DNA of 64,000 nt from positions 12,825 through 76,824 of IMG/VR virus record IMGVR_UViG_3300022689_000178; one strand, written 5' to 3'. Made by a program: the position numbers and the translations under genes. Below the pieces are notes generated by a model. The model was not told the DNA's origin, searched no databases, and saw only the letters and a list, made by a program, of their open reading frames with translations. Shown here piece after piece: positions 4,267-60,844 of this stretch. This stretch comes from a virus. Within the stretch, counting starts at the first letter, position 1, and every line of letters starts with the position of its first letter.

Positions 4267-5250
4267 ATGATAGTAAAAGAAAAAATAGGGAGGGGGTTTT
4301 TATATTTTATGGACGTATTGGAGGGTTTAAAATTACTACTTGACAATAGCCAAGATTTAATAATAGTTGACCCACCTTATTACAAGACTGTAAATGAGAA
4401 ATGGGATAAACAATGGAAGACCGAAAAAGAATATTTAGACTGGTGTAGATTATGGTTTGCTGAATGCGTAAGAGTACTGAAAGACACAGGTAGTTTTTAT
4501 TGCTATGGAAACTTTGACATACTGAGCAAACAAAAAGTATTGATATTTGATGATGCGCTGAACTTTAGGCAAAACATTACATTAAACAAAGGATTGAAAA
4601 GTATTGCTGGAAGAACAAGCGACAAACTTAGAATGTTCCCGACTGCAAGTGAATACTTGGTGTTTTACACTAAACAAGAAATGTGGTTTGAAACACCCTT
4701 TTCAATTATTATGAAAAGACAAATGAAAGAAAAGGGATTAACTCAGATTGATATTTCTAAACTTATACTTTCACGAAATGGTAATTTAACTGGATGGGTG
4801 CATAATAAGATTAAGGGCATACAATTGCCAACAGCAGAGCAATGGAACAAAATATGCAATTTGTTTGAAATTAAAAATGAATATGATTTATTGTGTGAAA
4901 GCTACGAAGAACAAAGGTTTACTTTTAACCTACCAACAGGACAAACCGATGTTTGGGATTTTACGCCCGACAAAGTTAGATTTGGAAATAAGACACAGAA
5001 ACCACAAGACATAAGTAGAAGAATTATAAAAGCAAGTAGTAACGAAGAACAAAGTGTATTGATACCATTTGCAGGGAGTGGAAGTGAATGTGAAGCTTGC
5101 GAAGTATTGGGTAGAAATTGGACTGCGTTTGAGAATGACCAATTTAGCATTGACATTATACACGAACGATTTAAAAACCTTAAAGCTTTTGAAAAAAGCA
5201 AAGAGCGTGGGCTTTTTTCTTTTACGGATGAACAGAACAAAGCTGATTAA
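4267..5250 (+). CDS. DNA amino-methyltransferase (m6A/m4C, beta class) with inserted HTH; cassette-borne
   Basis: Motif IV DPPY near N-terminus, TQKP, and motif I PFAGSGS near C-terminus. Confidence 0.9.
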   Translation: MIVKEKIGRGFLYFMDVLEGLKLLLDNSQDLIIVDPPYYKTVNEKWDKQWKTEKEYLDWCRLWFAECVRVLKDTGSFYCYGNFDILSKQKVLIFDDALNFRQNITLNKGLKSIAGRTSDKLRMFPTASEYLVFYTKQEMWFETPFSIIMKRQMKEKGLTQIDISKLILSRNGNLTGWVHNKIKGIQLPTAEQWNKICNLFEIKNEYDLLCESYEEQRFTFNLPTGQTDVWDFTPDKVRFGNKTQKPQDISRRIIKASSNEEQSVLIPFAGSGSECEACEVLGRNWTAFENDQFSIDIIHERFKNLKAFEKSKERGLFSFTDEQNKAD

Positions 5251-6029: not shown

Positions 6030-6158
6030 CCATAACGGCTACTTGTAAGAATAGTAGCAGAATTGAAACACGAATATTGAAATAATTACAAACTTAAATA
6101 CAATGGTAGCAGCTAAAAAGACCCTATAACCTGCTATTATTTTTACAAATTGTTATAG
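6030..6158 (+). repeat. attC-like site A3
   Basis: CCATAAC ... stem TTGTAAGAATAGTAGCAG/CTGCTATTATTTTTACAA ... GTTATAG. Confidence 0.8.
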
Positions 6159-6177: not shown

Positions 6178-6375
6178 ATGATTGCAAAAAAAAAAGGAAT
6201 AGAAATATTTCACAAACATTGGGATGAAGGATTATCTGATAGACAAGCAAAGGAATGTGCCTTAATAAGTGTTGGTGAAATTATTAAAGAATATGACGAA
6301 GAAATATTGGAATCTAACGATGTATATCGACAGCAATATTGGATAGAAGTAAGGGATTATTTAAATGCCCTATAA
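6178..6375 (+). CDS. Cassette hypothetical protein (AKECALI.V.EI...YW.EV small phage family)
   Basis: Stop TAA lies inside left core; flanked by GTTATAGGGCGTTTA/TAAATGCCCTATAAC. Confidence 0.7.
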   Translation: MIAKKKGIEIFHKHWDEGLSDRQAKECALISVGEIIKEYDEEILESNDVYRQQYWIEVRDYLNAL

Positions 6376-6470
6376 CGACAGGGGTTGGAGGCGGTTTTTT
6401 GCTTTGCAATTTTGCGAAGTGAAACGAGCAAATGTAAAGTTTAAAACTGACTTCCAAACCTCTGTTAGCA
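6370..6470 (+). repeat. attC-like site A4
   Basis: CTATAAC ... GGGGTTGGAGGCGGTTTT/AAAACTGACTTCCAAACCTC ... GTTAGCA. Confidence 0.8.
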
Positions 6471-12312: not shown

Positions 12313-12969
12313 ATGTCAAGATGTAAAGAAGAGGCAAAACAATATGCAAAGGAGTTGTATATGACATTAGATGAGTATGGAAATCCCGCATATACGCAAA
12401 CAGATATAATAAAACGTGTACAAAAAAAGTTCGGTAGAAAGAAAGGAATTACACGAGGAACATTGGTAGGATTGATCAGGAGTGAGGACTGGCAATTGAA
12501 ATTAAATAATTTACGGGCTGCCATTCAATTAAAAGGTTTTGCTTCTTTTGAAAAGATTGTAGATAGTGATGGTTGCGAGATAGATGACGCTTTATTATTA
12601 TCAAAATTAGATTCTGAATTAAAGGTAGCAAATGGAGAAAGTTTTAATGAGATTGTAAAAGAGATTATACAAAATAGGAGTAATTTAGTTGTTAATGCCG
12701 GTATGATAGCTACTGAAATGAGTCATGTGGGAATGATTATAATACGTGTTCAGTTAGTCCGGTTTTTACAAGAATTACAAAAAAAACCTATTGAGGAGGT
12801 TGATCCAAATAAATTCTTTAAAATACCGGATGCAATTAATATGATTGGTCAGTTGAATAATTTTGTAACTAAAATTAATCAAATTAATGTAAATCAAACT
12901 AATTTGCAAATATTACCATCCGAGCAAAGAGAACAATTATTGGATATGATTAAAGGATTTGATATATGA
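12313..12969 (+). CDS. Putative terminase small subunit
   Basis: N-terminal HTH-like AKELY....YTQTDI..RV; upstream of terL; INVNQTN tail. Confidence 0.55.
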   Translation: MSRCKEEAKQYAKELYMTLDEYGNPAYTQTDIIKRVQKKFGRKKGITRGTLVGLIRSEDWQLKLNNLRAAIQLKGFASFEKIVDSDGCEIDDALLLSKLDSELKVANGESFNEIVKEIIQNRSNLVVNAGMIATEMSHVGMIIIRVQLVRFLQELQKKPIEEVDPNKFFKIPDAINMIGQLNNFVTKINQINVNQTNLQILPSEQREQLLDMIKGFDI

Positions 12970-58897: not shown

Positions 58898-58966
58898 CCA
58901 TAACGGCATAGTGTTTAGGGAGTTTGGGCTTTTTCTGCCTAAATTACCTTAAACACCATGTTAGCA
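58898..58966 (+). repeat. attC-like site B7 (near-copy of B5)
   Basis: Arms GTGTTTAGGGAGTTT/AAATTACCTTAAACAC identical to B5; right core GTTAGCA. Confidence 0.88.
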
Positions 58967-58996
58967 ACTCTTTTTCATCCAACAAACATAAAACAA

Positions 58997-59941
58997 ATGA
59001 CTGAAATACTACATACAGGCGATAATTTAGAGTATATGCAGACGCTACCAAGTGAAAGCATTGACTTAATTTATTCAGATATTTTATACGGTACAGGTCG
59101 CGATTTTGGTAATTATAAAGATATAAAAGCAAACCGTAAAGATGTAGAAGAGTTTTATATTCCACACATTAAAGAGATGCACCGTTTGTTAAAAAAAACA
59201 GGTAGTATTTATTTGCAAATGGATACGCGAATTAATCATTATATAAGGTTAATTTTGGAAAATATTTTTGGAGTAAAAAATTTTATAAATGAAATTGTTT
59301 GGAAAAAAAGGAATAATACAAATAACATAGAGACTAATTATTTTAACCTTAATCATGATTTAATTTTATGGTATTCAAAAAGCAAAAATTATATATTTAA
59401 TAATGCTTATTTGCCTTTGTCTTCCGAAACAATAAAAAGGTATAACAGGAAAGATGAAAATGGTTTCTATTGTTTACAACCTATTTATAACAAATCTGGC
59501 AATTATAATAAATACACTACTTTAACATTAAATGGTAAGGAATATAAAGGATTTTATTCTTGGACGCAAAAAACATTAGATAAAAGATTACAAGAAAACT
59601 ACATTGTTGAAGAAAATACAAATGAATACTTATGCTACCGAAAATATTTGCAGACTTCAAAAGGTTCTCAAATAAGCGATGTTTGGACTGATTTAATTGA
59701 AGGTAGTGGAATTAAAAGGGAATACCAAACTCAAAAATCTATTGAATTAATGTCCCGAATAATAAAAGCAAGCTCAAATGTTGGTGATGTTTGCGCTGAC
59801 TTCTTTTGCGGTTCGGGCAGTTTTGGAGTTGCAGCAAAAAAATTAAACAGAAACGTAATTTTAAACGACATAAATCCCGAAGCAATTAAATTAAGTCAAA
59901 AGCGGTTGAACGATGCTTGCGACTTATTTAATTGTTGCTAA
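58997..59941 (+). CDS. Cassette DNA amino-methyltransferase (beta class)
   Basis: GDNLEYM, IDLIYSDILY (variant motif IV), TQKS..L, DFFCGSGS. Confidence 0.85.
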   Translation: MTEILHTGDNLEYMQTLPSESIDLIYSDILYGTGRDFGNYKDIKANRKDVEEFYIPHIKEMHRLLKKTGSIYLQMDTRINHYIRLILENIFGVKNFINEIVWKKRNNTNNIETNYFNLNHDLILWYSKSKNYIFNNAYLPLSSETIKRYNRKDENGFYCLQPIYNKSGNYNKYTTLTLNGKEYKGFYSWTQKTLDKRLQENYIVEENTNEYLCYRKYLQTSKGSQISDVWTDLIEGSGIKREYQTQKSIELMSRIIKASSNVGDVCADFFCGSGSFGVAAKKLNRNVILNDINPEAIKLSQKRLNDACDLFNCC

Positions 59942-60064
59942 CGGCTGGCGGTATGCGCTGGCTGGGATTAAAAGCAGAAACTTTCAAAAACAGATAAACA
60001 ATGAATAAAATTACAGACAATAAAAATAGCACGAACCCCAGCTTGCGTATAACGCATGTTAGCG
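59936..60064 (+). repeat. attC-like site B8 (loop contains the ATG of the next ORF)
   Basis: TGCTAAC .. GCGGTATGCGCTGGCTGGG/CCCAGCTTGCGTATAACGC .. GTTAGCG. Confidence 0.85.
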
Positions 60065-60369
60065 GTTCGGCTTTAATCGCTAAGTTTATGAAAAATACTG
60101 GTAGAAACGCTTTGGTTAAAGAATTTCAAAAGATGCAAGGATTACCAGAAAAGGACTACTATAATAGTTGGGATTGGCTTATGCCGGTTTATCGTAAAAT
60201 ACGAGATATTATAAATGAGCGGTCAAAATATGATAAACATACAAGGACTGAATATGATTTACTTGAACTTGATGCACAGATGGCAATTTGCGAAGTGGAC
60301 ATTGAAAAGGCGTTTATTTCAATCGTAAAGTTTATTGAATGCTGGAATGTTTCCAAAGCTGACCGCTAA
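60001..60369 (+). CDS. Cassette protein (LIAxFM...SWDWLMPV phage family); start codon inside attC B8
   Basis: Family motif LIAKFM lies upstream of the first internal ATG. Confidence 0.7.
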   Translation: MNKITDNKNSTNPSLRITHVSGSALIAKFMKNTGRNALVKEFQKMQGLPEKDYYNSWDWLMPVYRKIRDIINERSKYDKHTRTEYDLLELDAQMAICEVDIEKAFISIVKFIECWNVSKADR

Positions 60370-60496
60370 CGTTGAGCATATGCGGTCGTTGCTGTTTTAA
60401 ATAGAATTACGAACTTTCAAAAACAGATGTAATATGGAAAAAGAGACTAAACAACAAATTGACTACACGGCAATGCCGTATGATGCATTGTTAGGT
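60364..60496 (+). repeat. attC-like site B9 (loop contains the ATG of the next ORF)
   Basis: CGCTAAC .. GCATATGCGGTCGTTGCTGT/ACGGCAATGCCGTATGATGC .. GTTAGGT. Confidence 0.85.
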
Positions 60497-60787
60497 GTAG
60501 TTGTTTCGGGCTGCAAGTTCAAATACTTCTCATATGACCATAAGAAAGCCATAGAAGAGTACTGCACAAGTGATGATTATAAAGACGTGCGTAAGTGGAT
60601 TTCTAATCCAAATAGCTATGAAATGCCTGATAAGCTGAAAGAAAAATATAAGACTGAAAGAATTGGTAAACTACGAGAAATACACTTTGCTCCAACGGGT
60701 AAAGCATATAAATTTAAAATAGGTGCTAAATATGCAAAAACATACGGGTTAGATGATTTTGGTGTAAAAGTATTCCCGTTGGTTTAA
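60434..60787 (+). CDS. Cassette hypothetical protein; start codon inside attC B9
   Basis: No in-frame ATG in the first ~44 codons after GTT. Confidence 0.65.
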   Translation: MEKETKQQIDYTAMPYDALLGVVVSGCKFKYFSYDHKKAIEEYCTSDDYKDVRKWISNPNSYEMPDKLKEKYKTERIGKLREIHFAPTGKAYKFKIGAKYAKTYGLDDFGVKVFPLV

Positions 60788-60791
60788 TTAC

Positions 60792-60844
60792 ACCTAACGA
60801 AAGTATTAAAAGCATTTTAATGCTTTTTAATACTTTCGTTATAC
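60792..60844 (+). repeat. attC-like site B10 (minimal, 53 bp)
   Basis: TAACGAAAGTATTAAAAGCATT-TT-AATGCTTTTTAATACTTTCGTTA, perfect except for one extra T. Confidence 0.9.

Follow-up and report, generated by a model that had tools for sequence, protein, structure and literature searches.

In a 64,000-nucleotide (nt) stretch of viral DNA (IMG/VR virus record IMGVR_UViG_3300022689_000178, positions 12,825 to 76,824; the whole stretch is hereafter called the window), two small open reading frames, ORF-A and ORF-B, begin inside the hairpin loops of two sites, B8 and B9, that resemble the attC recombination sites of integrons. Each frame runs out of the loop, through the right arm of the hairpin and across its GTT core into the rest of the gene. 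We consider it probable that each site belongs to the gene it precedes and overlaps, i.e. that these are integron-type cassettes lying inverted in their array and carrying their own attC at the front. Integron cassettes are usually described as a promoterless gene followed by its attC and expressed from a platform promoter. If our explanation is right, a site family common to Flavobacteriaceae arrays and many phages is used here in reverse, with the gene on the recombined strand, its start in its own attC and its last codons forming the crossover core.

The window is the final 64 kb of a 76.8-kb record with an estimated completeness of 72%. Genes for a large terminase, a portal and a major head protein (Pfam/PHROGs) mark it as DNA of a tailed phage. 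Its G+C content is ~27%, and the + strand carries almost all of its genes. About 15 imperfect hairpins (starting with ..TAAC and ending with GTTA..) separate small genes from ~54.6 to 63.6 kb, and B8 and B9 are part of this array.

Anatomy of sites B8 and B9 and of their hairpin family

The main features are listed below in window coordinates; here and in what follows, a slash inside a sequence marks a proposed crossover or a junction.

59936-60064, + strand: attC-like site B8, 129 nt, with left core TGCTAAC, a left arm of ~22 nt, a 70-nt loop, a right arm and right core GTTAGCG
59939-59942, + strand: TAA stop of the methyltransferase gene, within the B8 left core; proposed boundary TAA/C at 59941/59942
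59942-60369, + strand: putative ORF-A cassette unit, running from its own attC body through the gene to the TAA of the next core
59979-59995, + strand: loop box AACTTTCAAAAACAGAT in B8, conserved in the attC family and also the A-rich context upstream of ATG 60001
60001-60369, + strand: ORF-A, 122 amino acids (aa), of a phage-associated family without assigned function; codons 1-19 come from the B8 loop and right arm, codons 20-21 (VS) from the GTTAGC core
60058-60064, + strand: B8 right core GTTAGCG, read in frame as Val-Ser-(Gly) and complementary to CCGCTAAC at 60363-60370
60364-60496, + strand: attC-like site B9, 133 nt, with left core CGCTAAC, a left arm with TATGCGGTCGTTGC, a loop, right arm CGGCAATGCCGTATGATGCATT and right core GTTAGGT
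60370-60797, + strand: putative ORF-B cassette unit, made of its own attC body and the gene, with complementary cores GTTAGGTGT and ACACCTAAC at its ends
60412-60428, + strand: the same conserved loop box in B9
60434-60787, + strand: ORF-B, 117 aa, of a family with the motif SGCKFKYxSYDHKKA and no assigned function; codons 1-18 come from the B9 loop and right arm
60790-60844, + strand: next site, a short one with 53 nt from core to core; the ORF-B cassette ends with its left core

A first-pass annotation, made from the letters of this DNA alone, had reported that both frames start in the loops, read through the right arm and GTT, and cross it in different frames. The sequence bears this out: ATG 60001 lies 57 nt before GTT 60058 and the core is crossed as CAT GTT AGC, whereas ATG 60434 lies 56 nt before GTT 60490 and the core is crossed as TTG TTA GGT. 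It was equally right that the cassette after B9 has no in-frame ATG until 60623, 44 codons beyond the crossover, and that in the cassette after B8 the motif LIAKFM comes before the first internal ATG; the motif ends at that ATG (60088).

Folded as single-stranded DNA, B8 forms a long imperfect hairpin whose 70-nt loop holds the ATG (dG -16.6 kcal/mol, z -2.0). The fold of B9 on its own is no better than that of shuffled sequence (z +0.2); the site matches the consensus helix of the family. This consensus derives from an alignment of 27 long sites, drawn from integrase-adjacent arrays as well as from the window and metagenome loci. It begins with YAAC and a spacer in which the 5' arm has ~3 extra nt, continues with a 14-bp helix and the loop, and closes with the right arm and GTTA or GTTG. 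The loop has its own order, with a (G)ATTAAA.. opening, an A(A/C)TTTCAAAA-like box and a variable 3' half. TAAC paired with GTTA (or CAAC with GTTG) is invariant in the 27 sites, and the full RYYYAAC and GTTRRRY consensus is often broken (e.g. TGCTAAC, GTTAGCG, GTTATAG). Compensatory double changes occur at 13 of the 18 consensus pairs, and, as in attC sites, the imperfect hairpin is conserved in structure rather than sequence. Moreover, 20 of the 27 sites have a conserved G.U pair on the + strand that would be a C/A mismatch on the opposite strand, which fits folding of the + strand. In characterized attC sites more G:T pairs are found on the recombined strand, and it is the bottom strand that is cleaved, within 5'-AAC-3' (Nivina 2016, PMC5027507). 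By homology, the + strand of B8 would be the folding strand and the canonical 'bottom' strand.

The first-pass annotation also saw the same leader before both ATGs. In the window the 17-mer AACTTTCAAAAACAGAT does have two exact occurrences (59979 and 60412), and allowing up to three mismatches gives seven matches against 1.5 expected (0 of 100 shuffles reach seven). It is not a private leader of these two genes but the conserved loop box of the family. That is, the box is also found in members without a loop ATG (window 54680, L009 1490, L005 2276) and in the L061 sites adjoining an integrase, where no gene starts in the loop. A role of the 17-mer as a phage-wide promoter or leader was considered and rejected, TTTCAAAA not being enriched upstream of starts elsewhere in the genome.

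Hairpins in the window are in excess under a stricter threshold (17 versus 4-12 in shuffles) and not under a loose one (37 versus 27-51). The single-gene units of the array each lie between their own complementary cores, as cassettes do; the pairs are GTTAGCAAC/GTTGCTAAC, GTTAGCGG/CCGCTAAC and GTTAGGTGT/ACACCTAAC. Rfam holds no family for the attC-like sites of the window and returned only three sub-threshold chance matches, and a megablast search of 12 kb of the window against a phage collection gave no match. B8 and B9 are members of a ~125-nt attC family of Flavobacteriaceae cassette arrays and their phages. A second small cluster of the same attC-like family lies at window 6030-6158 and 6370-6470, far from the main array and among early/accessory genes.

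Ownership and polarity of the sites

Which gene a site travels with can be read from the limits of the DNA that different loci have in common. The window and locus L001 share 59940-60372 at 91.7% nucleotide identity; with L002 the window has 59935-60090 and 60168-60371 in common. In each comparison the two flanks are unrelated. The gene upstream of the B8 unit differs each time, being the methyltransferase in the window, an opposite-strand flavin reductase in L001 and something else in L002. An unrelated 204-aa family behaves alike, with 678 nt at 90.7% identity common to L080 and L133 from 3 nt after AAC to TAAC, and different flanks. In addition, an ORF-B homologue with a B9-type site stands in L036/L139 behind another upstream gene. 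The site downstream of the gene, on the other hand, is common in none of the ~8 pairwise comparisons of ORF-A relatives. We infer that the upstream site and the gene form one unit, with its boundaries between TAA and C at 59941/59942 and 60369/60370.

Polarity was judged against arrays that adjoin a recombinase. In four Flavobacteriaceae loci (L060-L063; genomes G108, G142, G095 and G040), arrays lie directly 3' of a gene for a 375-378-aa recombinase, all array genes are co-directional with the recombinase, and the site strand that reads YAAC-G..TATG with the AAACTTTCA box is antisense to them. An nhmmer profile built from 14 of the L060-L063 sites (antisense strand) found 32 matches in the window and metagenome loci, 31 of them on the gene-sense strand. 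The canonical polarity, with the gene on the top strand and attC downstream, is absent from the window, from the L001 ORF-A unit, from L003-L012 and from 11 viral contigs. The strand polarity is opposite to that of the integrase-adjacent arrays, and the phage cassettes would therefore be inverted.

Locus L001 places the two orientations side by side. Its order is a 379-aa tyrosine recombinase, a spacer of ~100 nt, ORF-A with a B8-type site (convergent with the recombinase), then a co-directional reductase gene followed by a 128-nt site that belongs to it. Cores GTTGTGCG and CGCACAAC bound this gene, which is therefore a canonical cassette, with ORF-A inverted in the same array; the ORF-A unit sits between the attI-side junction and this reductase cassette. 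The array-adjacent recombinases pass the NF040815 model ('tyrosine recombinase/integron integrase') with 224-240 bits against a cut-off of 220 (224 bits for that of L001), and homologues of the L001 enzyme (35-52% identity) occur in 106 of 151 sampled Flavobacteriaceae genomes. A TIGR02249 (integron integrase) search of the 76.8-kb viral record found no match. Likewise, a search of ten other viral records with B9-type sites brought up no recombinase of the NF040815 type; one record has a weak generic tyrosine recombinase (51 bits).

The bacterial arrays deserve mention in their own right. Flavobacteriaceae loci (L060-L063; L001:3470-4609) hold up to nine sites in 10 kb, 3' of an Xer-like recombinase of 375-379 aa with a ~105-aa N-terminal extension. 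Complete integrons are rare in Bacteroidetes (IntegronFinder 2.0), and such arrays may be under-recognised.

In the mechanism that we propose, the strand of the bacterial arrays that reads YAAC-G..TATG, opposite to cassette genes that run with the recombinase gene, is the very strand on which the phage genes lie. Each phage cassette would be inverted, beginning with its own attC and ending at the TAA of the next TAAC core, with the crossover at TAA/C, and its excised circle would join ..CCGCTAA to CGGCTGG.. (3' end ..GCTGACCGCTAA to CGGCTGGCGG..). Such a layout would leave no room for a separate leader, so that an A-rich initiation region and the ATG would sit in the 3' half of the 70-nt loop. 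Translation would proceed across the right arm and GTT, so that site type and reading frame would set the first ~18-20 residues, and the inverse core of the same cassette would set the final codons with the stop. The anatomy of the sites, their membership of one family, their polarity, the limits of the shared units and the N-termini of the homologues are seen in the sequences; the crossover point, the acting recombinase and the use of the loop ATGs in vivo are inferred. We regard this own-attC, inverted-cassette explanation as the likeliest by a good measure.

Two proposals of the first-pass annotation fare differently here. It held that attC supplies the start codon and the N-terminus, and this stands in part: a start in the loop is likely and ~19-20 codons are site-encoded, but polarity and shared-DNA boundaries make the site the cassette's own. 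It also held that translation would depend on which cassette's attC sits in front, which would turn shuffling into a switch. With site and gene as one unit, shuffling would move start and gene together and no neighbour-dependent switch would arise.

Start codons and protein ends

Neither Pfam nor PHROGs holds a family for ORF-A or ORF-B, tblastn against GenBank phages matched neither of them, and when viral contigs were scanned with the ORF-A alignment, tblastn confirmed none of the 24 pattern matches. ORF-A has 37 database homologues. Their N-termini vary before the GTT junction and are conserved from VSGS on, which is what the first-pass annotation had expected of this alignment; conservation begins at VSGSALIAxFMG, and the preceding 15-25 residues are of several unrelated types. 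The VSGS of the family is the GTTAGCGGTTCG core with its flank (GTT AGC GGT TCG). The Met of FMG (ATG 60088) is replaced by Leu in the L004, L005 and L007 subgroup, where the next Met lies deep in the conserved core. In the L006-type subgroup (LLAVRLIANFMGW) the same nucleotides are present, GTT is crossed in another frame, and a 2-nt deletion restores the frame. Distant ORF-A relatives that lack the hairpin and stand in ordinary phage contexts start 12-15 residues before LIAEFMG (M..ILEGNKLIAEFMG), and the protein therefore needs residues before the FMG Met.

ORF-B points the same way. The right arm of B9 encodes ..AMPYDALLG.., and its PYDxL residues also open homologues without attC: MIPYEILKELL in L040 (a Bacillota metagenome-assembled genome with no hairpin upstream) and ..LIPYEVLKELM in L037, at equal spacing to the SGCKF/GVRF motif. 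Thus the conserved protein includes residues that are encoded ahead of GTT. The first-pass idea of a foreign, site-donated N-terminus fails for ORF-B on this point, and homologues keeping the same N-terminus without any attC had been named beforehand as an outcome that would speak against it. Several ORF-B homologues have no Met at the position of Met14 (ATG 60473) and keep the upstream Met.

A start-context matrix trained on 50 long ORFs of this phage gives the following scores and percentiles among true starts.

ATG 60001: score 6.3, 54th percentile
ATG 60434: score 5.3, 38th percentile
ATG 60088: score 0.1, 10th percentile
ATG 60473 (60473-60475, + strand; in frame, Met14 of ORF-B, in the B9 right arm, at most one residue from the start of attC-less homologues): score -8.3, below all 50 training starts

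These scores favour 60001 and 60434 over 60088 and 60473 and go against a downstream start at ATG 60088, which the first-pass annotation had put forward as an outcome that would overturn its reading. The first in-frame ATG lies in the loop at 16 of the 22 long sites that are followed by a frame of at least 45 codons, 38-87 nt (mostly 51-60) before GTT. Because of the homologues, the start-codon context and the lost alternative Mets, the loop ATGs are most likely the real starts of ORF-A and ORF-B, and would be the ones used in vivo. They open full-length proteins in frame (122 and 117 aa), which is not the coupling by a short upstream frame seen with the ORF-11 type of attI1. Only in L009 does the frame stop before the junction: this ORF-A relative (L009:2955-3040) has an in-frame TAA nine codons after the loop ATG, ahead of the right arm; translation of this copy may begin at the internal FMG Met, or the copy may no longer be functional.

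Two other start regions in the array are worth recording. The B9 loop holds an out-of-frame ATG directly followed by TAA (ATGTAA, window 60427-60432), 7 nt before the ORF-B start and in poor context (score -4.9). At window 58958-58999, the N6/N4 DNA methyltransferase ORF has a first ATG that lies partly within the GTT core of site B7 (ATGTTAGC); a second in-frame ATG, 58997, has a slightly better context (8.3 versus 7.6).

At the other end of ORF-A, the extended inverse core GCTGACCGCTAAC at window 60355-60370, which is the left core of the next site, supplies the last residues, ADR, together with the TAA stop. ADR and the stop are kept in nearly all cassette-borne ORF-A homologues and are absent from attC-less relatives. 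In ORF-A, recombination cores shape the protein at both ends. In one locus (L010:816-1352) an ORF-A relative is fused in frame, just upstream of IIADFMG, to a stretch resembling the N-terminal motif region of a DNA methyltransferase (..LIHGDSLQALKSYGDNHFDV..), apparently through a deletion that joined two cassettes.

Eleven further B9-type sites were retrieved from other viral contigs with a 14-mer of the B9 left arm, three of them in records estimated to be complete. Their loop ATGs lie 51-56 nt before GTT, and at 54 or 56 nt in 10 of the 11 (11 of 12 with B9). The heads fall into two types by frame, MNTEKSINEAxGNAVLPL/VS.. and MxKxTKQxxDYTAMPYDA/LL.., and the twelve tails (including that of the window) make up ten families without detectable similarity. 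The B9-type arm is read as GNAV before ORF-A relatives and as AMPY before ORF-B, and L098 has the AMPYDA/LL head on a protein other than ORF-B, with a core pair complementary at 10/10. Across these loci, the first 18-20 residues appear to be dictated by site type, not by protein family, and unrelated phage accessory proteins can in this way have a common, site-dictated N-terminus. Comparison of the loci indicates that head/tail exchange at or near GTT does occur, occasionally and over evolutionary time; it could stem from homologous recombination in the cores or from rare recombination events on the other strand. No evidence that such exchange works as a regulatory switch was found among the compared loci. 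It is conceivable, if rather doubtful, that the site-encoded heads are exchangeable modules, that rare recombination of the other strand at G/TT, or recombination in the cores, swaps N-termini between unrelated cassette proteins in a frame-dependent manner, and that the heads themselves (e.g. MNTEKSINEAxGNAVLPL) might be functional. Were this true, attC would serve in nature to fuse N-termini to proteins and to switch genes on or off.

Similar combinations are found elsewhere. On the minus strands of L138 (~4966-5114) and L147 (~2552-2699), the same attC with the same 14-nt extended cores (GTTAGCACCAGTAC/GTAYTGGTGCTAAC) accompanies unrelated cargo proteins, and window ORFs 57250 and 58448, with sites B5 and B7, likewise show the 'same chassis, different cargo'. 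Among sequencing runs, no RNA run was listed with this DNA, and four runs of one study, of unrecorded library type, contain small shares of it. Metagenome contigs from these four runs carry the bodies of B7 (58900-58960) and B8 (59940-60062) with different flanks on both sides, so that in nature the two site types are found in further cassette contexts.

Several observations weigh against the own-attC, inverted explanation. The extra unpaired bases (G9, C10 and G13 in B8, and the 3-nt surplus throughout the family) lie on the AAC arm of the strand taken to be recombined, whereas in class 1 and Vibrio sites such bases mark the non-recombined (top) strand (Nivina 2016, PMC5027507). The array-adjacent recombinases reach only 199-205 bits on TIGR02249 (cut-off 265), in two pieces that leave model positions ~180-240, the IntI-specific stretch, unmatched. 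A test over the 22 sites of whether the gene frame is open farther upstream of GTT than the other two frames gave weak significance (Mann-Whitney p = 0.01, Fisher p = 0.057). Some nearly identical gene bodies have unrelated sites in front of them, with the break at GTT: L011 and L012, the clearest case, are 94% identical from that core on; L005 and L008 have the site and GTTAGCGGTTCG in common before unrelated proteins. One metagenome contig has the B8 body (59940-60062) between other flanks on both sides. Finally, ORFs 57250 and 58448 have both the 5' leader and the downstream site (B5/B7) in common, which fits the canonical linkage of a gene followed by its site.

Some of these points would be explained if the array had the canonical orientation with the crossover at G/TT. 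The loop, the ATG and the head would then be owned by the preceding cassette, the ORF-A unit would run from G/TT 60058 to G/TT 60490, its circle would join ..GATGCATTG to TTAGCGG.. (..ATGATGCATTG to TTAGCGGTTCG..), and shuffling would act as a frame-specific switch or fusion generator, much as the first-pass annotation had it. The 'top strand' character of the extra bases, the divergence of L011 and L012 exactly at the GTT core and the linkage of B5 and B7 with the 5' leaders of the genes upstream of them are all in keeping with such ownership, as are the three head types on the same ORF-A-type gene body, the GNAV and AMPY readings of one arm, and the L009 stop between loop ATG and junction. 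We nevertheless think it unlikely, because of the polarity relative to the four integrase-adjacent arrays and the nhmmer strand test, and because no cassette gene stands before the B8 site of L001 that could own it. Moreover, the upstream site is co-inherited with ORF-A in three contexts, with the 204-aa family in L080/L133 and with ORF-B in the window and L036, and the downstream site never is; and the B9 arm encodes residues native to the ORF-B family. A different doubt concerns the starts alone: translation might begin downstream of GTT (at ATG 60088, and at 60473, 60623 or a non-ATG codon), with frames open into the loops as incidental extensions by the gene caller. The other frames are also fairly stop-free in the site arms, ATG 60473 coincides with the place where attC-less ORF-B relatives natively start, and head residues vary greatly among close homologues. 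Yet the Leu that several homologues have in place of the Met at 60088, the loss of the native Met in ORF-B homologues that keep the upstream one, the frame-compensating deletion in L006, the 10th and 0th percentiles of ATG 60088 and 60473 (against the 54th and 38th of the loop ATGs) and the stereotyped 51-56 nt between ATG and GTT in 12 B9-type sites make starts downstream of GTT quite improbable.

In T4-type phages, promoter-stem-loop cassettes have been proposed to shuffle by homologous recombination. The hairpins studied here could similarly be phage regulatory elements (terminators, promoters or translational elements) and not recombination sites. T-runs follow several of the short sites in the window, no recombinase was found in this contig or in three complete phages with B9-type sites, and homologous recombination in conserved cores could yield the mosaics of heads and tails. 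On the other hand, the same site family is arrayed beside a tyrosine recombinase in Flavobacteriaceae chromosomes and in L001, its structure is kept by covariation while the sequence varies, and each gene lies between its own perfectly complementary cores of 8-14 nt, a hallmark of cassettes excised as circles. Phage attC of this general kind are also recombined by IntI1, according to an excerpt of Qi et al. 2023 (PMC9892861). A purely regulatory role of the hairpins is, in our view, highly improbable, and we retain the own-attC, inverted-cassette explanation in what follows.

Comparison with known integron and phage systems

The closest precedents are phage CALINs (clusters of attC sites without an integrase), which include a Polaribacter phage and methyltransferase cassettes in the excerpt of Qi et al. 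2023 (PMC9892861). The window resembles them in its attC-type hairpins between small accessory genes, its DNA methyltransferase cassette and the lack of a phage integrase, in a setting that for the published examples comprises virulent phages, a flavobacterial one among them. Cassettes 'oriented in the same direction' are typical there, with some divergent sites, and the excerpt describes neither genes on the bottom strand nor starts in the loop. In the window every array gene is inverted and two genes start in the loop.

With canonical and Vibrio cholerae repeat (VCR)-type cassettes (PMC5027507; PMC8876359) the units have in common the AAC/GTT cores, a hairpin defined by structure, a long variable loop, a family of ~125-nt sites, own cores and a stop codon often lying in the inverse core. 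Unlike in those cassettes, the gene is on the other strand, and the site precedes and overlaps its 5' end. The ~3 extra nt lie by the R box on the AAC arm, whereas canonical sites have their extrahelical bases on the opposite arm, close to the L box. The bacterial recombinase that accompanies such arrays also differs in having no IntI-specific stretch, so the chemistry may differ from that of canonical integrons. Automatic annotation that sets boundaries at G/TT, or that trims ORFs at attC, will mis-call these genes. Since the ORF-A and ORF-B families exist in attC-less and attC-bearing versions, how an attC becomes attached to a gene can be compared at the sequence level.

Translation signals within integron sites have precedents of their own, namely the attI1 ORF-11/-17/-18 signals, short ORFs in attC and the gcuF1-blaOXA-28 fusion (reviewed in PMC8876359). 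As in those cases, the site provides translation signals, the frame crosses the core and context can alter the N-terminus. The known cases are a short upstream ORF acting by translational coupling at attI, or accidental fusions. Here, unlike with the attI1 ORFs, the cassette's own site would encode the start of the gene and ~19 codons, and would do so regularly throughout the site family. The integron/attC literature searched yielded no account of inverted cassettes with genes starting in their own attC loop.

The nearest parallel in layout is an engineered one. Synthetic attC sites have been embedded in protein-coding sequence and proposed for the shuffling of protein modules (Nivina et al. 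2020, PMC7439510), with a folded attC and a coding frame on the same DNA, as in B8 and B9. Those sites were designed and tested with IntI1, whereas the present ones are natural and lie at the 5' ends of genes. They suggest that a recombination hairpin and a coding sequence can occupy the same DNA in nature, as was engineered in 2020.

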